NCBI RefSeq assembly: GCF_001598795.1 | Contig: NZ_BCZP01000025.1 | Location: forward strand, 30,001-62,000 | Direction: 5' to 3' | Origin: Delftia acidovorans NBRC 14950 | Lineage (GTDB): Bacteria > Pseudomonadota > Gammaproteobacteria > Burkholderiales > Burkholderiaceae_C | DNA: 32,000 nt | Shown here: piece by piece, positions 16,826 through 31,545 of the stretch | Layout: every line of letters begins with the position of its first letter | How positions within the stretch are numbered: the first letter of the stretch is position 1 | The notes under the pieces: model-generated | Told to the model about the DNA's origin: nothing | Databases searched by the model: none | Seen by the model: only the letters and a program-made list of their open reading frames with translations | Made by a program: the position numbers and the translations under genes

Positions 16826-16854
16826 TCGTCACTGAACGCCCCGCCGTACAATCG

Positions 16855-17100
16855 CCGCCGTTGGTGCCAGCAGCCCCAGGGGCTGCGGTTAAACGGGAAA
16901 CATGGGGCGGCCAGATAAAGCTGCCCGCATGTACTGCCCCCGCAACAGTGAGTGAAACGCCGCGTGCATGGCACCGGCCCCCGCCAAACCCGTGCCACTG
17001 GGCGTACAGCCCGGGAAGGCCTTGGCGAGTGCGTCACCAGTCTGGATACCGGCCAACAGGCGGCCGGCCGCGCATGCAGCGCAGCCGGTCTTTGTGGTTT
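16855..17100 (+). promoter_or_regulatory. Cobalamin (B12) riboswitch with terminator-type expression platform
   Basis: Conserved elements appear in order: GGTGCC (16863-16868), GTTAAACGGGAA (16888-16899), CTGCCCCCGCAACAGTG (16934-16950), GCCACTG (16994-17000), GGGAAGGC (17013-17020) and the B12 box AGTCTGGATACCGGCC (17039-17054). A GC hairpin follows at 17062-17090, then TTTGTGGTTT (17091-17100). Confidence 0.85.
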
Positions 17101-17141
17101 CCGTGCCGGCGGGGTCGCTGGCGCGCAACTGGCTCGCATCC

Positions 17142-19064
17142 ATGCACACCCTCGCCCTCGCGCGCGCCCCTGGCGCCGCTCTTCGCTCGCCCTCGGCGTT
17201 TCCCGTACTGCGCACGTTGTCCGCCCTGGCTGCGGCCTCGCTGCTGGCCTGCCAGGCCCATGCACAGGCACAACAGGCACAACAGGCACAACAGGCGCAG
17301 CGCGCACAGGCCTCCCAGCTCGATACCGTGGTCGTCACCGCCTCGCGCAGCGAACAGTCCCTGCGCACCGTCACGGCCGACATGACCGTGATCGACGCCG
17401 AGACCATTGCCCGCAGCGGCGCCACCGGCGTGGCCGACCTGCTGGTGCAGGTGCCGGGCGTGCAGATCAACCGCAATGGCGGGCCGGGCCAGGTCACCTC
17501 GGTCTACCTGCGCGGCACCAGCAACCAGCACACTGCCGTGTTCATTGACGGCGTGCGCTACAGCTCGCAGGAGCTGCAGGGCGGCGCGGTCTGGTCCACC
17601 CTGCCGCTGGCGCAGATTGACCGCATCGAGGTGCTGCGCGGCCCGGCCGCCGCCATCTATGGCTCAGACGCCATGGGCGGAGTGATCCAGATCTTCACCA
17701 AGCGGGCGGACGGCCAGACCCGCGCCTATGCCGAGGCGGGCATAGGCAACCAGGGCACCAGCAAGCTGGCCACGGGATTTCAGGGCGGGGCCAACGGCTT
17801 CACCTATGGCCTGAACCTGGCGGACGAGCGCAGCGACGGCTTTGACGTCTACCCCGGCAACACCTTTTCGCCCAACCCGGACGAGGATGGCTACAGCAAC
17901 ACCTCGCTGGGCCTGAACGCGGGCTACAAAACGGGCATCCACCAGATCGATGCCAGCCTGCTGCACAGCCGCCTGCGCACCCACTACGACCAGAGCCCGC
18001 CGCCTTTCGACGACTACGACGTGGTCAAGAACACCACCGGCAGCCTGCGCTGGCAGGCCGGCTGGAACGCCATGTACAAAAGCGTGGTCCAGGTCTCCCA
18101 TACCGACAGCCAAAGCGACCGCCACACCCAGTCGCCCGAAAGCGCCAAGGGCCGCTCCACAAACTACCTGCTGCAGAACCTGTTCACGCTGGGCCAGCAC
18201 CGTTTCAACATCGACCTGGAGCGCCGCGAGGACAAGCTGGACACGCAATACGCCTGGACGCAGAACACCGACAGCCGGCGCGTGCAGAACTCCCTGTCGG
18301 CCGGCTGGCGCCTGACGGAGGGACGCCACCAGTTCGACGCCAACCTGCGCCACGACCAGGTGCGCGACCAGCAGAACAAGACCACGGGCGGGCTGGGCTA
18401 TGGCCTGCAGATCGACGAGCGCTGGCGCTGGGTGGCATCGGCCGGCACGGCCTTCAGAACCCCCACGCTGTACGAACGCTTCACGGGCCAGGCGGCGGCC
18501 GACCTCAAGCCAGAAAGCAGCACCAACGTGGAAACGGGCCTGCACTATGCGGCCGGTGCCAACCGCCTCTCGGCCGTGGTCTACCGCAACAAGTTCAAGA
18601 ACCTCATCACCTACGACTGGAACAGCGCCGTTCCCTGCAACTGCTACCGCAACTGGCAGAGCGTGGAGATCACCGGCCTGACGCTGTCGGGCAGCACGCG
18701 CCTGGGCAGCGCCAACCTGGGCGCCTCGCTGGACTTCATGAACCCCGAGAACCTGGAGACCGGCAAGCTGCTGCCCTACCGCTCCAAGCGCATGCTCAAG
18801 CTCAACGCCGACACCCAGGCGGCCGGCTGGACGCTGGGCGGCGAAGCGCAGCTGTACAGCGGCCGCTACGCAGACGAGGCGAATACCTTCAAGCTGGGCG
18901 GCTACGGCGTGGTCAACCTCTACGCCCAGCGCCAGCTGACCAGGCAATGGGCGCTGCTGGCCCGCGTCAACAACATCGCCGACCGCGACTACGCCCCCAC
19001 GCGCGGCTACGCCAACGCAGGCCGCACCGTGTTCGTCAGCGTGCGCTGGACTCCCCTGCCCTGA
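17142..19064 (+). CDS. btuB: TonB-dependent vitamin B12/cobalamin outer-membrane receptor
   Basis: It lies downstream of the B12 riboswitch. It has a signal peptide (LLACQAHA-QAQ), a TonB box LDTVVVTASR, a plug with IEVLRGPAAAIYGSDAMGGVIQIFTK and a barrel. The track start at 16968 lies inside the riboswitch, so I used the ATG at 17142. Confidence 0.88.
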   Translation: MHTLALARAPGAALRSPSAFPVLRTLSALAAASLLACQAHAQAQQAQQAQQAQRAQASQLDTVVVTASRSEQSLRTVTADMTVIDAETIARSGATGVADLLVQVPGVQINRNGGPGQVTSVYLRGTSNQHTAVFIDGVRYSSQELQGGAVWSTLPLAQIDRIEVLRGPAAAIYGSDAMGGVIQIFTKRADGQTRAYAEAGIGNQGTSKLATGFQGGANGFTYGLNLADERSDGFDVYPGNTFSPNPDEDGYSNTSLGLNAGYKTGIHQIDASLLHSRLRTHYDQSPPPFDDYDVVKNTTGSLRWQAGWNAMYKSVVQVSHTDSQSDRHTQSPESAKGRSTNYLLQNLFTLGQHRFNIDLERREDKLDTQYAWTQNTDSRRVQNSLSAGWRLTEGRHQFDANLRHDQVRDQQNKTTGGLGYGLQIDERWRWVASAGTAFRTPTLYERFTGQAAADLKPESSTNVETGLHYAAGANRLSAVVYRNKFKNLITYDWNSAVPCNCYRNWQSVEITGLTLSGSTRLGSANLGASLDFMNPENLETGKLLPYRSKRMLKLNADTQAAGWTLGGEAQLYSGRYADEANTFKLGGYGVVNLYAQRQLTRQWALLARVNNIADRDYAPTRGYANAGRTVFVSVRWTPLP

Positions 19065-19069
19065 CCGCC

Positions 19070-20011
19070 ATGCACCTGCTTGTGCGCCTTCCCCGCCTTC
19101 TGCTGCTGATCGCCGCCCTGGCCTGCGCGGGCGGCGCCGTCGCGCAAAAGGCGGTGGATGCGAACCAAGGCAGCACAGGCGCGAGCACAGCCACGCCGTA
19201 CACCGTCACCGACATGCGCGGGCGGCAGGTGCGCCTGGAGCGGGTGCCGCAGCGCATCGTCTCGCTGCTGCCCTCGCTGACCGAATCGCTGTGCGCACTG
19301 GACGCCTGCGAGCGCATCGTGGGCGTGGACGAGTTCTCCAACCACCCGGCGCGTGTGGCCGCCTTGCCCAAGCTGGGCCACACCTTTGCCCCGCTGGTCG
19401 AGGCCACCGTGCGGCTCAGGCCCGACGTGGTGCTGATGGCGTATTCCGCACCCGTCATCGCGCAGCTGGAGCGCTTCGGCATTCCTGTGCTGGCGCTGGA
19501 CGCCAATGACATGGCGCAGCTGGAGCAGGTGCTGCACAAGCTCGACCAGTTGCTGCAGGCGCAGCGCGCCAACGCCCTGCTGGCGCGCATGCAGGCCGAG
19601 GTGGACCAGCAGGCCAAGGCGCTGGCTGCGCACGCGCCCGCCGGGCAGAAGGTGTATTTCGAGGTGGACGCCACGCCTTACGCGGCAGGGCCGGACTCCT
19701 TCATAGGCCAGCTGCTGCAGCGCCTGGGCGCGCGCAATATGCTGCCGCAGAAACTGGGTCCCTTCCCCCGCATCACGCCCGAATACGTGCTGCGCCAGCA
19801 GCCAGAACTCATCATCCACACGCCGCAGACTCCATCGGCCAGCTTTGCCACCCGCCCCGGCTGGAGCCGCATGCCCGCCGTGCGCTCCGGCCGCATCTGC
19901 GCGCTGGACCTGGTCGAGACGGACGTGGTCTCCCGCCCCGGCCCGCGCCTGGGCGAGGCGGCGCGGGCGCTGGCCCGCTGCCTGCAGATGCCGGGCGCAG
20001 CGCCGCGTTGA
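19070..20011 (+). CDS. Periplasmic cobalamin/siderophore-type ABC substrate-binding protein (BtuF-like, PF01497 class)
   Basis: Signal peptide MHLLVRLPRLLLLIAALACAGGAVA. RIVSLLPSLTESLCAL...VGVDEFSNHP and PDVVLM are typical of BtuF-like binding proteins. The start is 6 bp after the btuB stop. Confidence 0.8.
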   Translation: MHLLVRLPRLLLLIAALACAGGAVAQKAVDANQGSTGASTATPYTVTDMRGRQVRLERVPQRIVSLLPSLTESLCALDACERIVGVDEFSNHPARVAALPKLGHTFAPLVEATVRLRPDVVLMAYSAPVIAQLERFGIPVLALDANDMAQLEQVLHKLDQLLQAQRANALLARMQAEVDQQAKALAAHAPAGQKVYFEVDATPYAAGPDSFIGQLLQRLGARNMLPQKLGPFPRITPEYVLRQQPELIIHTPQTPSASFATRPGWSRMPAVRSGRICALDLVETDVVSRPGPRLGEAARALARCLQMPGAAPR

Positions 20012-20389: not shown

Positions 20390-20715
20390 GAGAAATCCTC
20401 GGTGAGTGACGGAGATAAGCCTTGAGCGCCAAGCCGGCCGGCGATCGGTTCAAGGAAGAACTGAACCAGGGCAGTCTGCCATAGGCCTGGAGTATCATCT
20501 CGCGCAAAGTGCTGAACACACTTCTTGCTAGCCGGTAAGCCGCTCCCGAAAGCATTGTTGGAAAAATGCTTGGAGGCCTTATGGCTATTTTCTTTGCGGG
20601 CGTTTCAAGGCCCTTCCCCATCTCAATTTCCACTGCGCCACAGCTCTCTGATCTGTACATCGCTTCTTACCCTTTCTCCGCGCCCGGCTCCAAGCCATTT
20701 CGCTAAGGAGTCGCC

Positions 20716-21186
20716 ATGTTGTACTTTCAGATGTCGGAAGATGAGTTCAACCAACTGAACCGCGTGCGAGAACAATGGGGACTCATCTCAAGCTTGCTGA
20801 TTGGCGCTTACCCCAGCAATCCCATGGAGGTTGTCGATTCCAATGAGCTGCTTGCCTTTATCAATGCGCAGATTGAGGCGATGGAGGCAGTTGTGGGGGC
20901 GATAAGGCAAAGGGGCGTGATGAAACAGCTGACTGAGGAGAAAATCCTGGCGAAAGCCGTATCCGAGATCCGTCTTCTCCTGAGCGGATATCTGGGGAGC
21001 AACGTGGATGCGGATCCGAGCGTACGGATCGCAGCGCACCTGGCCTATGCCCTGCACAACGATGCATTGGCCGTGCTGGAGGGAAATGGCTTCAGCGCCG
21101 ACGAAGCGCTGAAGCGGGTGGCGGCCGTGGACTCGCTTCTAGGAGTCGAGGTGGGGAGTGAATTCGTTCGCAGCTTGGAAGCTTAG
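20716..21186 (+). CDS. Hypothetical protein (no family recognised), in the low-G+C islet
   Basis: 156 aa. The ATG is preceded by AAGGAG and a hairpin terminator follows. G+C is about 50-55% by hand count, against about 65% in the flanks. The protein is acidic, looks helical, and has no TM segment or signal peptide. Confidence 0.55.
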   Translation: MLYFQMSEDEFNQLNRVREQWGLISSLLIGAYPSNPMEVVDSNELLAFINAQIEAMEAVVGAIRQRGVMKQLTEEKILAKAVSEIRLLLSGYLGSNVDADPSVRIAAHLAYALHNDALAVLEGNGFSADEALKRVAAVDSLLGVEVGSEFVRSLEA

Positions 21187-21203
21187 AGCCCTCTCAAGAC
21201 CAA

Positions 21204-21228
21204 GGGGCAATGACAGCATTGCCCCTTT
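21204..21228 (+). terminator. Hairpin terminator after the 156-aa orphan gene
   Basis: GGGGCAATG (21204-21212), an ACAG loop and CATTGCCCC (21217-21225), then a TTTCCTTCTT tract. Confidence 0.55.
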
Positions 21229-21467
21229 CCTTCTTCCCAAGCCGCCCCAGAATGCCCAGCCTCGACCTACAGTTCGCCTGCATGCGCACCAGCCAGACCT
21301 ACAACGGTATGATGCCTGCCGGCACCGAACACCAACACTGATGCTTTGGAGCAGATAACAGCTCTTACCTGATTGATGCCATGGTGCGCTTGCGAGATCC
21401 GCCCCTTGAGAGCATGCGTTTATTCAATTAAAAACATCTCAGAAATGCATTCTTAATAGGAGTAGAA

Positions 21468-21770
21468 ATGCACTGCCAAAAATGTAGTCATGAATTTCAA
21501 GCGACCGATGTTCGCTGCATCAACTGCGGAGCGACCTTGATCTATGAAGCAAACGGTCATTCCAAGGAATACAAGGAAGCCGCAAGCTTCCTGGACTCAA
21601 AAATTTTTGCTGGAATGGGGGCCTTGATCGGATTTTCCATCGTGGCCTTTCTGTTGAAATTCATCTTTACTTCTCATTGGCTTTCAGATAGAGCAGTTTT
21701 CATGGCTGCGATGTGCGGCGGCTTGATCGGCGGTGTACTTGGACGCTTTATTCAAAAGCGCCAGCAATAA
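21468..21770 (+). CDS. Zinc-ribbon domain membrane protein (2 predicted TM segments)
   Basis: 100 aa. CxxC-x13-CxxC (CQKC...CINC) sits at the N-terminus, followed by two hydrophobic/Gly-rich helices (FAGMGALIGFSIVAFLLKFIF, VFMAAMCGGLIGGVLG). AGGAG precedes the ATG. G+C is about 45% by hand count. Confidence 0.65.
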   Translation: MHCQKCSHEFQATDVRCINCGATLIYEANGHSKEYKEAASFLDSKIFAGMGALIGFSIVAFLLKFIFTSHWLSDRAVFMAAMCGGLIGGVLGRFIQKRQQ

Positions 21771-22085
21771 TCAAAAAACGGAAGAAGGCACGAAGGCTTG
21801 GATCAGGGGTTGCATCTGTAGCCACAGTCGTTGCCTACAGGTCGTGATCGGTTCGTGCCGCATGGTGACGCGGGACATTCCGCCTAGCGTGATCGCTGCG
21901 GCCGTGCCTCACGGTGCGCGCGATCACGGATGAGGGCAAGACCGGCTTTCCTGCCCGGGCCTGCGGTCACCCGGCTCGGCAGCAGGCTCAGGCGGGCTGC
22001 CTTCCTTTCATCGGCCTGCATGATCCGGACACCACGCGGCTGCCCGAACAGCCCCATAATCTGGCTTCAAAATTTCACGACACCA

Positions 22086-22427
22086 ATGACACAGTCCCTC
22101 AAAGAACTCCTTGCGGCCAAGGCCGCGCTGGACATGGAAATTGCCAAGGCCCGCACCTCGGCGGCCGACGCTGCCCTGTCCAAGGTCCAGAAGCTGGTGA
22201 CCGATTTCGGGTTCACCCAGCAGCAAGTGTTCCCCTACATCCCTGAAAAAACCAGTGCGCCGGCGAAGTATCGCGATCCGGCTACGGGAGCGACGTGGAC
22301 AGGTCGAGGCAAGCCTCCGAACTGGATCAAGGACCAGGATCGCGACGACTTCCTCATCGAAAGCAAACCCGAAGCGGCCCAAGGCCCGTTTCTCGCCGAA
22401 ATGGCGGCAGCGGCAGCTCGCAACTGA
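22086..22427 (+). CDS. H-NS-family nucleoid-associated (xenogeneic silencer-type) protein
   Basis: 113 aa with an N-terminal coiled-coil (LKELLAAKAALDMEIAKAR) and the C-terminal DNA-binding motif KYRDPATGATWTGRGKPPNWI. I used the ATG at 22086; the track ORF begins earlier, at 21930. Confidence 0.88.
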   Translation: MTQSLKELLAAKAALDMEIAKARTSAADAALSKVQKLVTDFGFTQQQVFPYIPEKTSAPAKYRDPATGATWTGRGKPPNWIKDQDRDDFLIESKPEAAQGPFLAEMAAAAARN

Positions 22428-22503: not shown

Positions 22504-22539
22504 AAAAAAAGCCCTCTGAGCATTCAGCGGGCTTTTTTT
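22504..22539. terminator. Bidirectional Rho-independent terminator between the H-NS gene and the oxygenase operon
   Basis: An A7 run (22504-22510), a stem GCCCtCTGA/TCAGcGGGC with a 4-nt loop, and a T7 run (22533-22539). The structure is symmetric, so it can terminate both convergent transcripts. Confidence 0.7.
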
Positions 22540-22640
22540 CCGGCCTGGCGCCGGCGACGTAGTCACTTCCGGCATCTTTCGAGGGCGTGCATCGCGCTCC
22601 GGCAGGGGGATCAGCCGGGCCTTTGCGGCACCGCAAGCGC

Positions 22641-23015
22641 TCAGGCGTGGCTGACCGGGCAGCTGCCCGCCTTGCCCATGATGCTGTCCGCAGGCGCCTG
22701 CGCGCGGTCATTCAGTCCGTAGTCGCGCAGCACCTGGGTGACGCGCACGCGGTAGTCCTTGAAGATCTTGTCGCGGCCGGCGCGCTGGGCGCTGAGGTGG
22801 GCTTCCACGTTGCGCCACTGGACGACGGCTTCCTCATCGCGCCAGGTGGTGACGGACATGACTTTCTCGGGGTTGAGCGTGCTCTGGAAGCATTCCACGG
22901 AGATAAACCCCTCCATGGGCTTGAGCATGGGGGTGAGCTTGTTGACCAGGTCCACATAGGTCTGGTTCTGGCCGGGCAAGGCCTGCAGTTCGAACAGTAC
23001 GACAACCATCTTCAA
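22641..23015 (-). CDS. Antibiotic-biosynthesis-monooxygenase (ABM/Dabb-fold) family protein
   Basis: 124 aa. The pattern VVVLFELQALPGQ...GFISVECFQS...KVMSVTTWRDEEAVVQWRN..H is the ABM ferredoxin-like signature. AAGGAGAG precedes the ATG. This is the last gene of the operon. Confidence 0.85.
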   Translation of the reverse strand: MKMVVVLFELQALPGQNQTYVDLVNKLTPMLKPMEGFISVECFQSTLNPEKVMSVTTWRDEEAVVQWRNVEAHLSAQRAGRDKIFKDYRVRVTQVLRDYGLNDRAQAPADSIMGKAGSCPVSHA

Positions 23016-23103
23016 CTCTCCTTTTTTCGGGAACAGAGATTCCGGCGCCGCGCAGCGGCGGCTCCGGCGTGGGGGAAATGGGTGAATGGGCGGCGCCGCA
23101 GGT

Positions 23104-23808
23104 TCAGCGGCTGCGCGCCAGGTTGGTCAGCCAGGCGGCCAGCACATTGCGCGCGGCCAGGGCCAGCAGGCCGCCGTATTTCTGGGCATCGGCACGCAGG
23201 GTGCGCGGGTCCACCTGGGCGACGCCCAGTTCACAGGCATGGCCGACCAGCCAGCGCTCCAGCCGGGCCGCGTCGGCCTCCAGATGGAATTGCAGGCCCA
23301 GCACCTGCGGGCCCACGGCGAAGGCCTGGTTGGCGCCGATGGCGGTGCCGGCCAGGTGCACGGCGCCTTCGGGAATGTCGAACTGGTCGCCATGCCAATG
23401 GAGCACGGGCACGCCGTCCAGTTTGGCGAGGGGCGAGGCCAGGCCGGCGTCGGTGAGCGTGAGCGGCGAAAAGCCGATTTCCTTGACGCCCAGCGGGTAG
23501 ACCCTGGCGCCCAGCGCGCGCGCAATGAGCTGGGCGCCCAGGCAGATGCCCAGCAGCGGCTTGCCGCTGTCCAGCCAGCGGCGCACGGCCGCCAGCTCCT
23601 GGGCGACGAAGGGATAAAGCGCCTCGTCATAGGCACCTATGGGGCCGCCCAGCACGACAAGCAGGTCGGCACGGCCCAGGTCCAGGGTGTCAAGCTCGCC
23701 GATGCTGGGATCGACGTACTGCACTTCGTAGCCGCGGCTGGCGAACTCGGCATGCAGGGTGCCCAGGTCTTCGAAGTGGATGTGGCGCAGCGCGATGGCT
23801 TTTTTCAT
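23104..23808 (-). CDS. Class-I glutamine amidotransferase-like protein (stand-alone GATase1; possible gamma-glutamyl hydrolase)
   Basis: 234 aa from MKKAIALRHIHFEDLG. The nucleophile elbow is LLGICLGAQL (Cys89) and the C-terminal LQFHLE gives His175/Glu177. The track ORF 23104..24450 is a read-through extension into the upstream gene. Confidence 0.88.
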   Translation of the reverse strand: MKKAIALRHIHFEDLGTLHAEFASRGYEVQYVDPSIGELDTLDLGRADLLVVLGGPIGAYDEALYPFVAQELAAVRRWLDSGKPLLGICLGAQLIARALGARVYPLGVKEIGFSPLTLTDAGLASPLAKLDGVPVLHWHGDQFDIPEGAVHLAGTAIGANQAFAVGPQVLGLQFHLEADAARLERWLVGHACELGVAQVDPRTLRADAQKYGGLLALAARNVLAAWLTNLARSR

Positions 23809-23858
23809 GGGAAAACTCAGGTGGATACAGGAGGATGGCTTGGAACGTGCGGAGCCAG

Positions 23859-24938
23859 TCAGGCGCCGGGCTTGAGATCGACGTGGATATGGCCTGCCGA
23901 GGGGAAGGTGCAGCAGGCCAAGGCATAGCCGGCTTCCTTTTCCCTGTCGCTGAGGCAAAAGTCCGCCTCCAGCCGTGAACTGCCTCCCGTGATGCGGATG
24001 CGGCAGCTGCCGCAGATGCCGGCCCGGCACTGGCTGCGGATGGCAATGCCCACGCCTTCCAGGATTTCCAGCAGGCTTTTGCCGGACGCGGCTTCGACAA
24101 TCTGCCCGCTGTGCGCGATCTGCAGCTGGCATGCCTGCGCGGTCTCGCCTGGCTGGGCAGTGGATGCGGCAGGCGGCGTGAAGGCCTCGATGTGCTGTAT
24201 GGCACCGGGAAAGCAGGCCCGCGCATGCTCGCGAAAGGTCTGCGCAAAGGCGTGGCCGCCGCAGATGACCACCGCCTGGGGCTGGCCCAGCGCCAGCAGG
24301 GACTGCTGCGAGGGGCGGCCCGGCACGAAGGGGCCGTGGGCGGCAATGTCTTCGCGCGTGATGTGGATACGCAGGTCGAACCAGGGGGCCGTTTCGCACA
24401 GCTGCTGCAGCTCCTGCAGGAACGGAATGTCGGCCATGCGCGCAAAGCACAGCAGCAGCGTAGTGCGCGGCACGCGCCGGCCCTGCTGTTGCAGCCGGTC
24501 CAGTTCGCGCAGCAGCGCCAGCGGCAGGGTCAGGCCGATGCCGCCGGCCAGCATGACCAGGCAGTCCAGGCCCAGCACCAGGTCGGCCGTGATGTCACCG
24601 GCCACGTGGCCGAGCGGCAGCGTGGAGCCTGCGCGCAGCACCGCATGCATGTGGTCGGAGACGCTGCCCCGGCCCGAGCTTTTGACGGCAATGTCGAACT
24701 GGCCGGCGCCGTCGTGCTCGCTGCAGGGCTCGTAGCGGGTGATGGAGTACAGCCGCTGCTGCACGGCGCCACTGGCGTCGGGATGCTCGACGGCCACATG
24801 CCGACCGGGCCGCAGGCCGCCGAGGAACTGCGCCGAGGCGCCCTGCACGCGCAGGGTGTAGACCATGACGCCGCCCGCCTCTGCCCGTGCCGCGGCGCAG
24901 CGCGCCAGCGTGCTGCCTGCCTGGAGGGCGGCGCTCAT
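23859..24938 (-). CDS. FNR-type flavin/NAD(P)H oxidoreductase with C-terminal plant-type [2Fe-2S] ferredoxin domain (oxygenase reductase component)
   Basis: 359 aa with the RLYSIT flavin motif, the MLAGGIGLTLPL nucleotide-binding motif and C304-x4-C309-x2-C312-x29-C342. The start ATG overlaps the upstream stop as ATGA at 24935-24938. Confidence 0.9.
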   Translation of the reverse strand: MSAALQAGSTLARCAAARAEAGGVMVYTLRVQGASAQFLGGLRPGRHVAVEHPDASGAVQQRLYSITRYEPCSEHDGAGQFDIAVKSSGRGSVSDHMHAVLRAGSTLPLGHVAGDITADLVLGLDCLVMLAGGIGLTLPLALLRELDRLQQQGRRVPRTTLLLCFARMADIPFLQELQQLCETAPWFDLRIHITREDIAAHGPFVPGRPSQQSLLALGQPQAVVICGGHAFAQTFREHARACFPGAIQHIEAFTPPAASTAQPGETAQACQLQIAHSGQIVEAASGKSLLEILEGVGIAIRSQCRAGICGSCRIRITGGSSRLEADFCLSDREKEAGYALACCTFPSAGHIHVDLKPGA

Positions 24939-25897
24939 GCCTGCATCTCCTCGAGGACCGAGGACACCAGCGCCACGCTGCCGCCCAGGTTGCGGCCCGC
25001 AAGGCCGATGCGGTCGATCAGGCTTTGCACCGAGTCGGTGTAGACGCCGATCTCGTTGCTGTCGCCCACGTCGTGCAGGATGTCGCGCGCATGCGGCATG
25101 CCGACCATGGTGAAGACGGTGGACCAGGCGCCCAGTTCGTTGTTGGCGAACATCTGCACGGTCTTGAGGATGATGGAGCGCAGGTAGCTGCGCTCGCGGT
25201 TGCTCAGGCCCTGGACGATGTCGGTGGCCACCGAGCTGAAGACGCTGGAGTGGCTCCATTCGTCCACGGCGTGGGTGCGCGTGACCTCGTGGCAGATGGG
25301 CTGGATGGAGCGGTCCTCGGCCATGGTCTTGAGGTAGTCGGTGATCAGGGTCTCGCTGGCACAGGCAATGGCGAAGCGGGCCAGGCGGCGCTCCCATTCC
25401 GCGCCGCACTGCGCCAGCACGCCGTTGCGCCAGCCGACGAGGTTGAAGTCCGCGTAGTCCAGCGGCGCCAGGCCGCGCATCTCGTAGATGTAGTTGCAGG
25501 CCATGATGGACATGCGGGTGTGCAGGGCCTCGTCCAGCAGGGCCTGGGACATGACGTCCTGCAGCAGCGCCCGGTTGGCGCTGGGCGGCGGGGTCTTGAT
25601 GATGTCCTCGCAGGCCGGCGTGACCACGTTGCACTCGATGTAGATGGTCTTGAGGTTGTAGATGCCCCAGGCGTAGGACAGGCATTGGTCGCGCAGGTGC
25701 TGTGGCGCCTCCACCCATGCCTGGTGGTCGCGAAACGGCAGCAGCGAGGCGGTGAAGTCCTGCCGGGCGGGGTCGAACGCCAAGCCGCAGTAATCAGGCA
25801 GGTCCTGATTCACGGCCGCTCTTGACTTCCAGAGCAGGGACAGCTTTTTGAGCGCATCGCGCACGGCGTCATCTGTCCGAGAGATATCGAGATTCAT
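24935..25897 (-). CDS. AurF-family (ferritin-like) non-heme diiron oxygenase
   Basis: 320 aa. Candidate ligands are E88, E123-x2-H126 (DEALH), E182 (SETL) and H209-x3-E213-x2-H216 (HAVDEWSH). Their spacing matches the AurF set E101/E136/H139/E196/H223/E227/H230 as I recall it. Extended colinear similarity to AurF is seen by eye (RAAVN..DY, EWERR...ETLI, IQP). Confidence 0.85.
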   Translation of the reverse strand: MNLDISRTDDAVRDALKKLSLLWKSRAAVNQDLPDYCGLAFDPARQDFTASLLPFRDHQAWVEAPQHLRDQCLSYAWGIYNLKTIYIECNVVTPACEDIIKTPPPSANRALLQDVMSQALLDEALHTRMSIMACNYIYEMRGLAPLDYADFNLVGWRNGVLAQCGAEWERRLARFAIACASETLITDYLKTMAEDRSIQPICHEVTRTHAVDEWSHSSVFSSVATDIVQGLSNRERSYLRSIILKTVQMFANNELGAWSTVFTMVGMPHARDILHDVGDSNEIGVYTDSVQSLIDRIGLAGRNLGGSVALVSSVLEEMQA

Positions 25898-25980
25898 TTT
25901 TCAACTCCGTGTAATTGAACTTGGTTGATCTGAGTCAAATCGCCTATTCCCTCCCCCCGCTTTCTCCATCCGCCGCAATC

Positions 25981-26052
25981 ACCAATGGCGCTGCAAATGA
26001 CGATGCAAATGACGATGCACATGGCGCTTCAAATGACGCTGCAGATGGCAGA
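25981..26052. repeat. Six tandem 12-bp units (consensus about GCAAATGACGMT) in the divergent control region
   Basis: The units are ACCAATGGCGCT, GCAAATGACGAT, GCAAATGACGAT, GCACATGGCGCT, TCAAATGACGCT and GCAGATGGCAGA, read directly from 25981-26052. They lie 84-155 bp upstream of the oxygenase start. Confidence 0.8.
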
Positions 26053-26415
26053 TACGTTGTCATGGATTTCTTCACTCTGTCATATTCCGCCTTGAATCAA
26101 TCTGCCCGACTGCAAATTGCGGATGATTCCTGGCGGTATTGAATCTCATGACTTTCAACGTCTGGCGGCGAATTCTATGGAGACAGCGTGGATTCAAACA
26201 GACCTATTTTCGTCAATGAACCAGACCGCTTTTTCAACGGTTTACATTGGCATGCCACCTTAATTGGTCTGCTCACCCGCTGAAACATGGTCGGAATCAA
26301 GGCAGCTGCACTTTGTAGACTGCCCATTACCGATGCGCCCTGGTTTCCAAATCCTTCCATAACCCGGGCGCTGCCGATTCCCGTGCTTCAGCGCCTCCAA
26401 GACAGCCAATGCGAC

Positions 26416-27696
26416 ATGGACGATTTATCGCTCCCCAAAATCAATTCACTGGATCTTCAACAGGCAGACAGCGAGGCCTGGGATGCCATCGCGGCCGAGC
26501 GGATTCGCCAGTCGCGCTCGATTGAATTGATTGCCTCTGAAAACTTCGTGAGCCGCGCGGTGATGGAGGCGCAGGGCTCGGTGCTGACCAACAAATACGC
26601 CGAGGGCTATCCGGGCGTGCGCTACTACGGCGGCTGCGCCAATGCCGATGCCGTCGAGAACCTGGCCATTGCGCGTGCCAAGGCGCTGTTCGGCTGCGCG
26701 CACGCCAACGTGCAGCCGCATTCGGGCAGCCAGGCCAACCAGGGCGTGTACCTGGCCTTTCTGGAGCCTGGCGACAAGATCATGGGGCTGGACCTGCGCT
26801 CGGGCGGGCACCTGACGCATGGCTCCCGCGTGAGCGTGTCGGGCAAGTGGTTCCAGTCCATCAGCTACGAGGTGGACGCCCGCTCCCAGCGCATCGACAT
26901 GGACCAGGTGCGGCGCATTGCGCTGAAGGAGCGGCCCAGGCTCATCATTGCCGGTGGCTCGGCCTATTCACGGCAGATGGACTGGGCCGAGTTCCGGCGC
27001 ATTGCCGACCGGGTGGGCGCCATCTTCATGGCCGACATCGCGCACGTGGCGGGGCTGGTGGCCGCGGGCGTGTTCCCCTCCCCCGTGGAGCACGCCCATG
27101 TGACCACGACCACCACGCACAAGACGCTGCGCGGGCCGCGCGGCGGCATGATCCTCTCGGCCGACGCCGAGATCGCCAGGCGCATAGACGCCGCCGTGTT
27201 TCCGGGCCTGCAGTCCGGGCCGCTGATGCATGTGGTGGCGGCCAAGGCGGTGGCGCTGGGCGAGGCGCTCAAGCCCGCCTTCCGCACCTATGCGCGGGCC
27301 GTGGTGGACAACGCCCGCGTGCTGTGCGACCGGCTTTCGCAGGGCGGACTGTCCGTGGTCTCCGCAGGCACGGACTGCCATCTGGGCGTGATCGACCTGC
27401 GCCCCTGGGAGCTGACGGGCAAGGCCGCCGAAACGGCGCTGGAGCAGATCGGCATCACGGTCAACAAGAACGCCGTGCCCGGCGATGGCGCGCGGCCGCT
27501 GGTGACCTCGGGCATCCGCGTGGGCAGCGCGGCCTGCACCACGCGCGGCATGGGCGCCGACGAGTTCCGCGAGATCGGCGACATGATTCTTGCCACGCTG
27601 GGCGGCATACGCAGCGGCACCATGAACGCGCGCACGCTCAAGTCCATCCACGAAGGCGTGTCCGACCTCACCGGGCGCTTTCCCCTGCCCTATTGA
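26416..27696 (+). CDS. glyA: Serine hydroxymethyltransferase (PLP-dependent)
   Basis: Canonical SHMT: [57 protein letters not shown] and the PLP-lysine motif [18 protein letters not shown] chose the ATG at 26416 (MDDLSLPK). The track start at 26287 adds an implausible 43-aa extension. Confidence 0.92.
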
Positions 27697-27726: not shown

Positions 27727-29241
27727 TCAGGGTTTTCGCAGCGCGTTGGCCAGGCGCAGCACGGCGGCCTCGATCTCGTAGGCCGTGAGGGAGGCATAGC
27801 CCAGCAGCCAGCCCGGCTGCCGCTGCTCGCCCGCGTACAGGCGGCTGAGCCCCTGCAGCAGCACGCCGGCCGCGGCGGCGCGGCGGATAGTGTCTTCCTC
27901 GGACCAGCCGGGCTCCAGCAGGCAGGGCACCTGCATGCCGCCCTGGGGCCGTGGCGCGGTGACGATGCCGGCCAGGTGCCTGCCTATGGATTCGAGGATG
28001 ACCTCGCGCCGCCCCGCGTACAGCTTGCGCATGGCCCGCACGTGGGAGTTGTAGTGGCCGTCTTCCATGAAGCGCGCCAGCGTCAGCTGCTGGATCTGGG
28101 GCGTGTGCCCGTCCATGATGCTGCGCGCCTGGACAAAGGCGCGCACCAGCTCCTGCGGCAAGGCCATGTAGCCCATGCGCAGGCCCGGGTACAGGGTCTT
28201 GCCGAAGGTGCCGATGTAGATGGTGCGCCCGTGCTTGTCCAGGCCTTGCACGCAGGCGGTGGGCATGCCGTCGTAGTGGAATTCGCTGTCGTAGTCGTCC
28301 TCGATGATCCAGCGCCCGCTCTCGAACGCCCATCGGATCAGGTCCAGCCGCCGCTCCAGCTGCATGGTGACGCCCGTGGGGTACTGGTGCGATGGCGTGA
28401 CGTAGACGCAGGTGGCGCCGCTGCGGTCGGCATGCAGCAGGTCCGTGCGAATGCCTTGCGCGTCCACGTCGATGGGCAGGACCTTGGCCTCCGCCGACTC
28501 GAAGGCCTTGCGGGCGCCGAAGTAGCCGGGGTTCTCCAGCAGGATGGGCCGGCCCGCGTCCACCAGCAGCTGCGCGCACAGGAACAGCGCCTGCCGCGTG
28601 CTGCTGAGCACCACGATCTGCCCGGCGTCCACCTTGGCGCCGCGCTCCAGGTTGAGGTAAGTGGCAATGGCCTTGCGCAGCGGCTCGGCGCCCTGCGGGT
28701 CGCCGTGCAGCAGGACGCTGGCGCGGTAGTCCTTGAGCGCCTGCCGCTGCAGCCGCTCCCAGACATCGGTGGGAAAGGTTCGCGTCTCGGGCAGGCCGGT
28801 GGCAAAGGCCCGAATGGTCTGCTGGTCGGCGATGCCGCCGCCGTCAACAATGGCCTGGCCGCGCCGGCTCAGGCCGGCACCGGCCCTGCCCGCTGCGGCC
28901 ACCTGGGCGCTGCGCTCGTGCTCGGGCGACCGGCCGCGCCGCGCCGCCCGGCCCCGCAGCTCGGTGCCGATGGTCTCGGAGACATAGCTGCCCGATCCCT
29001 GGCGCCGCACGATGAAGCCGTCGCGGTGCAGCTGGGTGTAGGCGTTCTCCACCGTGTCGCGGGCAATGCCCAGCGAGTCGGCCAGCGAGCGCGTGGCCGG
29101 CAGCTTCAGGCCGGGCAGCAGAGCTCCGTCCAGGATGAGCGCACGCATGGCGCGCTGCACCCGCTGGTGCAGGTCCAGCTGGCGCAGGTCGGCATCTCCC
29201 ATGCGGATCTTCAGGGTCTCAAGCTCGAAGGTCTTGCTCAT
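27727..29241 (-). CDS. MocR-subfamily GntR regulator (wHTH fused to PLP-dependent aminotransferase-like domain)
   Basis: 504 aa with an N-terminal GntR wHTH (LPATRSLADSLGIARDTVENAYTQLHRDGFIVRRQGSGSYV), a linker and a fold-type-I aminotransferase domain (YGDPQG, SHQYPTG, IYIGTFGKTLYPGLRMGY). Confidence 0.9.
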   Translation of the reverse strand: MSKTFELETLKIRMGDADLRQLDLHQRVQRAMRALILDGALLPGLKLPATRSLADSLGIARDTVENAYTQLHRDGFIVRRQGSGSYVSETIGTELRGRAARRGRSPEHERSAQVAAAGRAGAGLSRRGQAIVDGGGIADQQTIRAFATGLPETRTFPTDVWERLQRQALKDYRASVLLHGDPQGAEPLRKAIATYLNLERGAKVDAGQIVVLSSTRQALFLCAQLLVDAGRPILLENPGYFGARKAFESAEAKVLPIDVDAQGIRTDLLHADRSGATCVYVTPSHQYPTGVTMQLERRLDLIRWAFESGRWIIEDDYDSEFHYDGMPTACVQGLDKHGRTIYIGTFGKTLYPGLRMGYMALPQELVRAFVQARSIMDGHTPQIQQLTLARFMEDGHYNSHVRAMRKLYAGRREVILESIGRHLAGIVTAPRPQGGMQVPCLLEPGWSEEDTIRRAAAAGVLLQGLSRLYAGEQRQPGWLLGYASLTAYEIEAAVLRLANALRKP

Positions 29242-29318: not shown

Positions 29319-29367
29319 AAGTGGTCTGAAACAAGAGAGCGAAGTGTATGGATCATTCAGTCCACTT
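29319..29367. promoter_or_regulatory. Inverted repeat in the MocR/benE divergent region (candidate operator)
   Basis: AAGTGGTCTGAA (29319-29330) and TTCAGTCCACTT (29356-29367) match 11/12 and are separated by 25 bp. Direct repeats CCATTGTA (29283-29290) and CCATTGCA (29311-29318) lie nearby. Confidence 0.4.
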
Positions 29368-29432: not shown

Positions 29433-30689
29433 ATGCCTTCATCAGACACACACTCACCCCTTCGCTTCAGAGACCTCATCCACCCCGTTGTGGCCGGGCT
29501 GATCTCGGTCATCGTCAACTACGGCGGCACCTTCATCCTGGTGTTCCAGGCCGCCAAGGTGGCCGGCCTGAGCCCGGAACTCACGGCTTCGTGGGTGTGG
29601 TCGATTTCGATTGGCGTGGGCGTCACCGGGCTGGTGCTGAGCTGGCTCTCGCGCGAGCCCATCATCACGGCCTGGTCCACGCCGGCCGCCGCTTTCCTGG
29701 TGACGGCCCTGGCCACCACGCCGTATGCCGAGGCCGTGGGCGCCTATGTGGTGTCGGCCGCGGCCTTCGTGGTGCTGGGACTGTCGGGCTGGTTCGAGCG
29801 CGTGATCCGGCTGATTCCGCCCGGCGTGGCCTCGGGCCTGCTGGCGGGCATCCTGCTGCAGTTCGGCATCAAGGCCTTTGGCGGCATGAGCGTGGACCCG
29901 CTGTTGGCCGGCCTGCTGATCGTGGCCTATGTGCTGCTCAAGCGGCTCACGGCGCGCTATGCGGTGGTCGGCATCCTGGCGCTGGGCATGGCGTTCCTGC
30001 TGGCGCAGGACCGTGTGGACCTGTCCGGGCTGCAGCTGCGATTCGCGGCGCCGGTGTTCACACGGCCGGAATTCACGCTCAACGCCCTGCTCAGCGTGGC
30101 CCTGCCGCTGTTCCTGATCACGCTGACCGGCCAGTACATGCCCGGCATGCTGGTGCTGCGCAACGACGGCTTCAAGACCAGCGCCAACCCCATCGTCACG
30201 CTGACGGGCCTGGGCTCGCTGCTGATGGCGCCGTTCGGCTCGCACGCCTTCAACATCGCCGCCATCACGGCCGCCATCTGCACGGGCAAGGAGGCGCATG
30301 AAGAGCCGTCCAGGCGCTGGATCGCGGGCATCGCTGCGGGCGTGTTCTACATCCTGGTGGGCGTGTTCGGCGTCACGCTGGCGGCCGTGTTCATGGCGTT
30401 CCCGGCCACCTTCATCACCACGCTGGCGGGCCTGGCGCTGCTGGGCACCATCGGCGGCAGCCTGGCCAATGCGCTGGCCGACGCCAAAACCCGCGAGGCC
30501 TCGCTGATCACCTTCCTGGCTGCCGCAGCCAACATTTCCATGCTGGGCATAGGCGGCGCCTTCTGGGGCCTGGTCATCGGCCTGGTCGCCCATGCCGTGC
30601 TCAACGGCCAGTGGCCGCGCCGGGCCGCCCGCAGCGAGGCGGGCACCGGCAACGTGCCCGCCGCCGATGCCGCCATCAAAAGGAGCTGA
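29433..30689 (+). CDS. benE: BenE-family (benzoate/H+ symporter-like, YdcO-type) membrane transporter
   Basis: 418 aa and multi-TM. The N-terminal pattern AGLISVIVNYGGTFILVFQAAKVAGLSPE....SW and ITAWSTPAAAFL is typical of the BenE family. Confidence 0.88.
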   Translation: MPSSDTHSPLRFRDLIHPVVAGLISVIVNYGGTFILVFQAAKVAGLSPELTASWVWSISIGVGVTGLVLSWLSREPIITAWSTPAAAFLVTALATTPYAEAVGAYVVSAAAFVVLGLSGWFERVIRLIPPGVASGLLAGILLQFGIKAFGGMSVDPLLAGLLIVAYVLLKRLTARYAVVGILALGMAFLLAQDRVDLSGLQLRFAAPVFTRPEFTLNALLSVALPLFLITLTGQYMPGMLVLRNDGFKTSANPIVTLTGLGSLLMAPFGSHAFNIAAITAAICTGKEAHEEPSRRWIAGIAAGVFYILVGVFGVTLAAVFMAFPATFITTLAGLALLGTIGGSLANALADAKTREASLITFLAAAANISMLGIGGAFWGLVIGLVAHAVLNGQWPRRAARSEAGTGNVPAADAAIKRS

Positions 30690-30693
30690 AACC

Positions 30694-31545
30694 ATGCTTT
30701 CGACACAAGACACCACCGGCGGCACCGCCCAAGCCGCCGACACCCTGACCCGCCACGACCAGCACGGCCGCTACCCCCAGGCCGAGACGGTGGACGATTT
30801 CCGGCACAACCTGGCCACCGTGCAGGCGCGCATGGCCGCTGCGTGCCGCCGCGCAGGGCGCGACCCGGCCAGCGTGCGCCTGCTGCCCGTGAGCAAGACC
30901 AAGCCCGAATCCAGCCTGCGCCTGGCCCACGCGGCGGGCTGCCGCATGCTGGGCGAGAACAAGGTGCAGGAAGCCTTCGGCAAGTGGGAGGCCATGCAGG
31001 ACCTGGCCGATCTGCAGTGGTCCGTCATCGGCCACCTGCAGACCAACAAGGCCAGGCTGGTGGCACGCTTTGCCAGCGAGTTCCAGGCGCTGGACAACCT
31101 GCGCGTGGCCGAGGCGCTGGACCGCCGCCTGCAGGCCGAAGGCCGGGCGCTGGACGTGTTCGTGCAGGTCAACACCTCGGGCGAGGCCAGCAAATACGGC
31201 CTGCCGCCCGACGAGGTGCAGGGATTTGTCCAGGCCCTGCCCGCCTTCAGTGCGCTGCGCGTGCGCGGCCTGATGACGCTGGCCCTGTTCTCCAGCGAGG
31301 CCGAGCGCGTGCGCCAGTGCTTCGTGCTGCTGCGCAGCCTGCGCGACCAGCTGCGCCAGAGCGCGCCGGCGGGCATCTCGCTGGATGAGCTGTCCATGGG
31401 CATGTCCGGCGACTTCGAGATCGCCATCGAGGAAGGCGCCACCGTGGTGCGCGTGGGCCAGGCCATCTTCGGTGCCCGCGCCCAGCCGGACAGCTTTTAC
31501 TGGCCCGCAGGCGGCCCCGATCCCGCGGCCCTGGCACTGCCCTGA
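30694..31545 (+). CDS. yggS: YggS-family pyridoxal-phosphate homeostasis protein (with N- and C-terminal extensions)
   Basis: VRLLPVSKTKP (PLP lysine), GENKVQEA, WSVIGHLQTNKA, LSMGMSGDFE.AIE.GAT.VRVG. AGGAG lies 8 nt upstream of the ATG, and the start is 4 bp after the benE stop. Confidence 0.88.
   Translation: MLSTQDTTGGTAQAADTLTRHDQHGRYPQAETVDDFRHNLATVQARMAAACRRAGRDPASVRLLPVSKTKPESSLRLAHAAGCRMLGENKVQEAFGKWEAMQDLADLQWSVIGHLQTNKARLVARFASEFQALDNLRVAEALDRRLQAEGRALDVFVQVNTSGEASKYGLPPDEVQGFVQALPAFSALRVRGLMTLALFSSEAERVRQCFVLLRSLRDQLRQSAPAGISLDELSMGMSGDFEIAIEEGATVVRVGQAIFGARAQPDSFYWPAGGPDPAALALP

Follow-up and report, generated by a model that had tools for sequence, protein, structure and literature searches.

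A four-gene Delftia operon and its likely counterpart, the Alcaligenes dnfABC locus for direct ammonia oxidation

We asked which pathway is encoded by a compact four-gene operon in a 32,000-nucleotide stretch of the genome of Delftia strain NBRC 14950 (contig NZ_BCZP01000025.1, positions 30,001 to 62,000; hereafter the window, numbered from its first letter). The genes specify an AurF-family diiron oxygenase, a dedicated reductase, a class-I glutamine amidotransferase (GATase)-like hydrolase and an ABM-fold protein. The original prediction, made from the sequence, took the first three for a system that oxidizes amine or amide nitrogen, and took that system to be undescribed and without a place in any characterized pathway. 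The first part of this proposal matches the current model of the Dnf proteins of Alcaligenes. The second part does not stand, as the first three genes, the divergent glyA gene and the MocR-type regulator beyond it are orthologous and syntenic to dnfR-T2-ABC of Alcaligenes, and because dnfABC has been characterized, the block already belongs to a known cluster. The operon is almost certainly the Delftia orthologue of the Alcaligenes dnfABC ‘Dirammox’ (direct ammonia oxidation) locus, as judged by sequence comparison.

To our knowledge, dnfABC is currently the sole genetically defined route for heterotrophic ammonia oxidation to hydroxylamine and N2. It is relevant to the nitrogen cycle and to wastewater treatment, its real substrate chemistry is disputed, and naming the Delftia operon dnfABC removes a false call of a new system. 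The Alcaligenes cluster has been studied genetically and biochemically since 2020; we reached this literature by a full-text search for the domain combination and compared the Alcaligenes locus gene by gene with the window. The Alcaligenes genes are ordered dnfT1-R-T2-A-B-C-D and annotated as a SerC-like transaminase (dnfT1), a MocR-type regulator of the ‘PLP-dependent aminotransferase family’ (dnfR; PLP, pyridoxal 5'-phosphate), a serine hydroxymethyltransferase (SHMT; dnfT2), a diiron N-oxygenase (dnfA), a 2Fe-2S protein (dnfB), a glutamine amidotransferase (dnfC) and a pyridoxal kinase (dnfD). Neither the system nor its occurrence in Delftia is new: the genus is among those with DnfA or dnfABC homologues in a 2020 bioRxiv preprint, in ISME J 2024 and in mLife 2025, and the ISME J article names Delftia lacustris HQS1 and has a supplementary figure of dnfRABC arrangements. 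What is new is the ABM gene at the dnfD position, the finding that ABM, BenE and YggS-like genes travel with dnf clusters in Delftia, Pseudomonas and Microvirgula, and a recurrent CAGACC box.

Identity of the operon

The four genes run along the minus strand from 25897 to 22641, and the list of open reading frames (ORFs) agrees with the predicted coordinates and with junctions of -4, +50 and +88 bp. The dnfA orthologue (24935-25897, 320 amino acids) encodes the AurF-family diiron oxygenase. The ATG of the dnfB orthologue (23859-24938, 359 amino acids) overlaps the dnfA stop codon by 4 nt (ATGA), and its product is an FNR-type flavin and plant-type [2Fe-2S] reductase. After a gap of 50 nt follows the dnfC orthologue (23104-23808, 234 amino acids), encoding a stand-alone class-I glutamine-amidotransferase-like hydrolase, and after a further 88 nt the accessory gene for the ABM-fold protein (22641-23015, 124 amino acids as called). 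On a metagenomic contig of 99% identity, genes called independently have the same 320- and 359-amino-acid products and again overlap by 4 nt. All four genes are real, and they are transcribed together.

A bidirectional intrinsic-terminator hairpin (22504-22540, assigned to neither strand) lies between the ABM gene and a convergent H-NS-like gene, where the operon had been predicted to close. It folds at -33.9 kcal/mol (z=-5.0; 0 of 200 shuffles fold equally well) and is flanked by A7 and T7 runs. A simple consensus terminator scan did not detect this hairpin because its stem is interrupted, and folding was needed to confirm it. Within the operon, a scan of the dnfC-ABM gap gave no promoter or terminator match, and we rejected an internal terminator or attenuator there, as the hairpin predicted for the 88 nt is no better than shuffles (z=+0.75).

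Profile searches placed all four products in the families expected of them (PF11583, Fer2/FNR, PF00117 and PF03992). DnfA matches the AurF family in Pfam (PF11583, E=1e-57) and is 76% identical to its Alcaligenes counterpart. The full AurF-type ligand set that had been claimed for it is borne out: E88/E123/H126/E182/H209/E213/H216 align with AurF E101/E136/H139/E196/H223/E227/H230, and all seven residues are invariant among 19 aligned homologues. The numbering is exactly that published for Alcaligenes DnfA (Glu88, Glu123, His126, Glu182, His209, Glu213 and His216). The protein is 100% identical in D. tsuruhatensis NBRC 16741, whose DNA is 96.7% identical over 10 kb; the window belongs to the D. 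tsuruhatensis group. DnfA shares the PF11583 fold family and the seven-residue (four Glu, three His) diiron site with the arylamine N-oxygenases AurF and CmlI, but it is distant from both (E=2e-32 to CmlI, 1.5e-25 to AurF) and scores 107.5 bits on the NCBIfam model NF045603 against a cutoff of 620. Unlike AurF proper, it has a reductase of its own and a GATase as partners, and the window holds no polyketide, p-aminobenzoate or aromatic-amine context. We found no structure of DnfA; its sole structural relatives are CmlI (5hyg) and AurF (3chh).

DnfB carries Fer2 (PF00111), FAD_binding_6 (PF00970) and NAD_binding_6 (PF08030) domains together with the motifs RLYS, GGIG and C304-x4-C-x2-C. It is 49% identical to Alcaligenes DnfB, whose gene overlaps dnfA by the same 4 nt. 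DnfC matches the GATase family (PF00117, E=1.5e-17) and the NCBIfam model PRK07053 (340 bits against a cutoff of 250), and is 66% identical to Alcaligenes DnfC. Its Cys-His-Glu triad is intact, as predicted, with C89 in the motif GICLG and H175 and E177 in the motif FHLE. The PDB entry 9xfs, deposited under the name ‘Glutamine amidotransferase’, matches the window protein at E=5e-99 and is 96% identical to Alcaligenes DnfC.

Divergent from dnfA, on the plus strand, lies the dnfT2 orthologue (26410-27696), which encodes an SHMT specific to the cluster (PF00464, E=3e-161). The protein is 61% identical to Alcaligenes DnfT2 and only 51% identical to the second SHMT of the same Alcaligenes locus. 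Next to it, on the minus strand, the dnfR orthologue (27727-29241) encodes a MocR-like regulator with a GntR helix-turn-helix (HTH) and an aminotransferase-fold domain (Pfam GntR and Aminotran_1_2; 427 bits on the NCBIfam PdxR model against a cutoff of 320) that is 78% identical to Alcaligenes DnfR. R, T2, A, B and C are thus orthologous, at 49-78% identity, to the clusters of Alcaligenes ammonioxydans HO-1 and A. faecalis JQ135, and share with them gene order and orientation (R then T2, with A-B-C divergent from T2), the dnfA/dnfB overlap, the diiron ligand positions, the GATase triad and a CAGACC box between dnfT2 and dnfA. Unlike those clusters, the Delftia locus has no adjoining dnfD or dnfT1, holds ABM in place of dnfD, and has dnfR flanked by a BenE gene and a YggS-like gene. 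No homologue of dnfD or dnfT1 was found among the window's seven cluster proteins or in the ±10-kb flanks of two Delftia loci; neither gene is required for activity, since dnfABC suffices in Escherichia coli. Of the four operon genes, only ABM falls outside the published description of the Alcaligenes cluster.

A genome scan gave 62 loci encoding DnfA relatives, and we searched these by tblastn with the window and Alcaligenes proteins. DnfB is encoded next to dnfA in 55 of them, and DnfC is encoded in 44, rising to 30 of the 32 loci whose DnfA is at least 70% identical. The other genes are more scattered: MocR-type DnfR occurs in 21 loci, a T2-type SHMT in 20, SerC-like T1 in 19, PdxK (DnfD) in 15, and ABM and BenE in 14 each. 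Across these loci the comparison shows A, B and C as the core and PdxK or ABM, the YggS-like protein, BenE, SHMT and the SerC-like protein as variable accessories.

Chemistry of the pathway

What the core genes do is known from Alcaligenes and E. coli. E. coli carrying dnfABC alone makes NH2OH and N2 from ammonium, dnfA, dnfB and dnfC are each required, and millimolar free NH2OH and N2 are the products measured in both hosts. Ammonia oxidation in Alcaligenes cannot do without glnA and has glutamine as an intermediate; A. faecalis oxidizes many amino acids through dnfABC, by way of ammonia and GlnA-made glutamine. In the current Dnf model, ammonia takes its gamma-glutamyl form as the glutamine that GlnA makes, and the gamma-hydroxamate is hydrolyzed by DnfC (PMC11440038, PMC11160463). 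Miao 2023, as cited in other papers, reported that glutamate gamma-hydroxamate forms in vitro in a DnfAB-dependent way and is hydrolyzed by DnfC. DnfC hydrolyzes both glutamine and glutamate gamma-hydroxamate in vitro, and purified DnfA binds NH2OH and slowly converts it to N2 (Km 93 uM, kcat 0.028 per second).

The best explanation of the Delftia operon is a dnf locus that takes this glutamine-hydroxamate route to hydroxylamine, a reading to which we would give a probability of about 0.6, with every step carried over by orthology. Housekeeping GlnA, encoded outside the window, would fix ammonium into L-glutamine, and electrons from NAD(P)H would pass via the flavin and [2Fe-2S] cluster of DnfB to the diiron center of DnfA. 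DnfA would then activate O2 and N-hydroxylate the amide nitrogen of glutamine, or of a close derivative, to yield L-glutamate gamma-hydroxamate. The Cys-His-Glu triad of DnfC would hydrolyze the hydroxamate to glutamate and free hydroxylamine, which would go on to N2 either by the action of DnfA or abiotically. A precedent for N-oxygenation of the glutamine amide, likened here by description, is TsnB7 of trichostatin A biosynthesis (Kudo et al. 2017, as related in PMC11160463). According to that account, TsnB7 is an AurF-family enzyme that converts the amide to glutamate gamma-monohydroxamate, and a second enzyme cleaves the hydroxamate and mobilizes hydroxylamine. TsnB9, once annotated as an amidotransferase, is described there as transferring NH2OH to an acceptor, unlike DnfC, which is a stand-alone class-I GATase that releases free NH2OH.

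Several points weigh against this route. Its weak link is the N-hydroxylation by DnfA, since what DnfA acts on directly is disputed: binding of glutamine to DnfA was not detected by isothermal titration calorimetry (ITC) or differential scanning fluorimetry (DSF), and in the view of Qin et al. the enzyme works directly on an intermediate yet to be identified. Lenferink et al. hold that N2 formation from NH2OH is abiotic, and some Alcaligenes strains that carry dnfABC are inactive. On the Delftia side, dnfD and dnfT1 are missing beside the operon, the identity of DnfB to the Alcaligenes protein is low for the cluster at 49%, the part that we would give to the accessory genes (below) is a guess, and the predicted function is lent by orthology to experiments in Alcaligenes and E. 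coli. D. tsuruhatensis is used as a strain for heterotrophic nitrification-aerobic denitrification (PMC12731035), which bears only circumstantially on whether these genes yield NH2OH and N2 from ammonium or glutamine.

The dispute over the DnfA substrate leaves room for the same three genes to perform other chemistry, which we consider possible though on the unlikely side. DnfC would act as an amidotransferase that moves the glutamine amide nitrogen to an unidentified organic acceptor, DnfA and DnfB would N-oxygenate the carrier-bound amine, and hydroxylamine would be released, while the PLP-centered genes (SHMT, SerC-like, PdxK, YggS-like, the MocR/PdxR-like regulator and ABM) would make, recycle or sense the carrier. 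The ITC and DSF results and the intermediate that their authors deduce fit this scheme, Lenferink et al. make the case that the carrier is organic and the cluster resembles one for biosynthesis, and PLP-related genes do recur round dnfABC in many genera, with a YggS-like gene in 24 of the 62 loci besides the SHMT, SerC-like and PdxK genes counted above. However, dnfABC alone is sufficient in E. coli, and any carrier must therefore be a metabolite found commonly. DnfA, DnfB and DnfC have been reported to convert glutamine in vitro, DnfC stands alone without a synthase partner domain, and in Tistrella the accessory module occurs without dnfABC.

Improbable, in our view, is a third account, in which the locus would make an N-oxygenated secondary metabolite (a hydroxamate, nitro, nitroso or azoxy compound), with ABM as a tailoring oxygenase, BenE as the exporter and free hydroxylamine as a by-product. 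Enzymes of the AurF family and ABM proteins are both characteristic of natural-product pathways, and Lenferink et al. propose a role in secondary metabolism. A sister operon in Pectobacterium brasiliense (L037, 7263-13196) also has this flavor, joining genes for a DnfA-like protein (69% identical) and a DnfB-like protein, without DnfC, to those for an arylamine N-acetyltransferase, a serine hydrolase, an MFS transporter and an ATP-grasp ligase. A similar DnfA-like clade is present in Ewingella, Rouxiella and Pantoea (L038-L040), and this Enterobacterales operon may represent an uncharacterized N-oxygenation pathway. In Delftia, however, Pfam scans of the ORFs across the 32-kb window found no nonribosomal peptide synthetase (NRPS) or polyketide synthase (PKS) domain and no other scaffold-building gene, nor any glutamine synthetase (GS)-like, Rieske or P450 domain, in agreement with what had been predicted. 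The products measured in Alcaligenes and E. coli are free NH2OH and N2 at millimolar levels, and the active Alcaligenes clusters have no ABM gene within their ±10-kb flanks.

In the aniline dioxygenase (tdnQTA1A2B/atdA1-A5) and isopropylamine (ipu) systems, a nitrogen compound is gamma-glutamylated, oxygenated with the help of an FNR/Fdx reductase and freed by a GATase1-like gamma-glutamyl hydrolase. The original prediction had drawn this analogy, and it was apt, because gamma-glutamylation of ammonia gives glutamine, and the gene for the ligase concerned, GlnA, lies elsewhere; the current Dnf model follows the same logic (PMC11440038, PMC11160463). The likeness is one of logic and not of family: the GATase1-like hydrolase and FNR/Fdx reductase are present in Delftia, but the oxygenase is of the diiron AurF type rather than a Rieske protein or P450, ammonia itself takes the part of the ‘amine’, and a housekeeping enzyme serves as the ligase, with no GS-like gene found in the window. 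The catabolic version, in which exogenous amines, aromatic amines or amino acids would be oxidized as in tdn/atd or ipu by a diiron oxygenase, is very improbable: it can point to the trio of genes, to the many amino acids that A. faecalis oxidizes via dnfABC and to the BenE-type transporter nearby, but the window yielded no GS-like gene for a gamma-glutamyl ligase, amino-acid oxidation in Alcaligenes passes through ammonia and GlnA-made glutamine and does not attack the amine directly, NH2OH and N2 are formed and not a ring-cleavage substrate, and the cluster is orthologous to dnf.

Accessory genes and a candidate operator

Returning to the dnf locus and the genes that surround its core, the ABM protein matches PF03992 (E=4.5e-16). 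Its start is probably the ATG at 23009, giving 122 amino acids, because AGGAG lies 8 nt upstream of that codon and the Pseudomonas orthologues are 122 amino acids long. ABM directly follows dnfC in both Delftia loci (98-99% identical) and in 12 Pseudomonas loci, where it is 80-86% identical although DnfB there is only ~52% identical. In Microvirgula, ABM follows dnfD, and since both genes are present, ABM is an additional gene and not a replacement for the pyridoxal kinase whose position it holds in Delftia. Orthologues of at least ~72% identity are also found in Serratia, Xenorhabdus, Xenophilus and Tistrella, and the Serratia and Xenorhabdus strains in question also carry DnfA homologues, on contigs equal in length to those with the ABM gene; remoter relatives occur in an unrelated HTH-NIPSNAP-ABM context. 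We rejected a heme oxygenase of the IsdG/HmuQ type, to which the protein matches only at E~2e-3, scoring 18 bits where the cutoffs are 119-130. In the PDB, its nearest matches are uncharacterized proteins.

Two further genes lie beyond dnfR. The BenE-family transporter gene (29433-30689, plus strand; PF03594, E=9e-128) is divergent from dnfR, and its product is 81-85% identical, and the gene syntenic, in Pseudomonas dnf clusters; it also occurs in the Microvirgula and Tistrella modules. The gene for a YggS-family PLP-binding protein (30694-31545, plus strand; TIGR00044, 197 bits against a cutoff of 106) begins 4 nt past the BenE stop codon. Its homologues in dnf loci (55-99% identity) differ in placement, with three arrangements seen: they adjoin BenE, sit immediately upstream of dnfA, or separate dnfB from dnfC. 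They lie at ~9000-9900 in L024, L017, L027, L029 and L034 and at ~12050-12820 in L028, L030, L041 and L064. No such gene turned up in the 10 kb around the Alcaligenes clusters.

The variant architecture of the window, YggS-BenE-(T1)-R-T2 / A-B-C-ABM, recurs in Pseudomonas (cedrina, iridis, fulva, koreensis and others) and in Microvirgula. Unlike Delftia, the Pseudomonas clusters keep dnfT1 and often have an extra MFS gene between dnfT2 and dnfA; they also carry a class-III (ArgD-like) aminotransferase gene beyond the YggS-like gene (P. iridis L014; 8610-9824, 705-2755). The fullest layout is that of Microvirgula (L066, 1-10396), with YggS-like, BenE, T1, R and T2 genes on one side and A, B, C, D and ABM on the other, and this points to a single larger locus that was reduced in different ways to give the layouts of Alcaligenes and Delftia. 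Tistrella mobilis (L067, 4479-10345) has a MocR gene facing genes for BenE, a class-III aminotransferase, an SHMT and an ABM protein 72% identical to that of the window, and dnfABC is not nearby, so that the accessory genes can evidently stand as a unit of their own.

The intergenic region between dnfT2 and dnfA spans 512 bp and holds three CAGACC boxes (26199-26204 and 26222-26227 on the plus strand, 26266-26271 on the minus strand) within 73 bp (26199-26271), where ~0.07 would be expected from the window-wide frequency. The longer form CAGACC(A/G)nTTT is present in the same intergenic region of Delftia, Alcaligenes, Pseudomonas, Microvirgula and one metagenome-assembled genome (L005, L007, L011, L013, L014, L019, L049, L006 and L066), at 2-4 copies against ~0.3 expected for the box, and in several loci two copies stand 23 bp apart. 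A further consensus copy lies at 29323-29328, between dnfR and BenE. The boxes are a plausible candidate for the DnfR operator, through which DnfR would probably control both divergent promoters. No riboswitch was matched by Rfam in the 512 bp at E<=1.

As a classical carbonyl reagent, hydroxylamine reacts with PLP to form oximes. The recurring dnf partners that are PLP-related comprise the MocR/PdxR-like regulator, the SHMT, the SerC-like transaminase, PdxK and the YggS-like protein, and a role in PLP buffering therefore suggests itself; our preferred guess is that the accessory genes buffer PLP-dependent metabolism against hydroxylamine. More doubtfully, ABM (de facto a fifth operon gene), the YggS-like protein, BenE and the dedicated SHMT might form a second dnf module under DnfR, acting through shared CAGACC operators, that protects or replenishes PLP in the face of oxime formation by the cell's own hydroxylamine, or else handles the organic nitrogen carrier that DnfA would in fact oxidize. 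If so, the seven-gene Alcaligenes cluster would be a reduced form of a broader ancestral locus, with Microvirgula the fullest, and ABM would catalyze an undescribed step on an N-O or oxime intermediate. The value of the comparison is modest: it separates core from accessory genes, offers a candidate DnfR operator and gives ideas as to why PLP-related genes accompany hydroxylamine-producing enzymes. Beyond that, the interest of the locus lies in the ABM/YggS-like/BenE set, the operator and the DnfA substrate question.

Tandem repeat and remainder of the window

Upstream of dnfA, at ~90-150 bp, a 12-bp tandem repeat of 5.3 copies (25984-26047, assigned to neither strand; consensus AATGACGCTGCA) reads MALQMTMQMT... 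on the plus strand and is rich in His and Arg codons on the minus strand. In D. tsuruhatensis NBRC 16741 the array has lost or lacks 24 bp, D. acidovorans does not conserve it, and the other loci and genera checked showed nothing comparable upstream of dnfA. Because of these negatives and a copy number that differs between two strains of the D. tsuruhatensis group, we rejected a regulatory array and a leader peptide as readings of the repeat, which is a minisatellite that varies among strains.

A link to nitrogen metabolism in the upstream half of the window was likewise rejected, as that half holds nothing but genes for efflux, transporters and TonB receptors, together with a cobalamin riboswitch. 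The riboswitch (16846-17071; Rfam RF00174, 61 bits) lies upstream of genes for a TonB-dependent receptor (16968-19064) and a periplasmic binding protein (18947-20011), a set that looks like a BtuB/BtuF-type B12 uptake locus. Further on, a low-GC (0.55-0.58) stretch of ~1.4 kb (20453-21847) has no counterpart at the matching D. acidovorans position and is unmatched in the D. tsuruhatensis NBRC 16741 locus. It holds a 156-amino-acid ORF without a family match and a 100-amino-acid zinc-ribbon/membrane ORF, and it adjoins the H-NS-like gene (~22086-22427) that converges on the dnf terminator.

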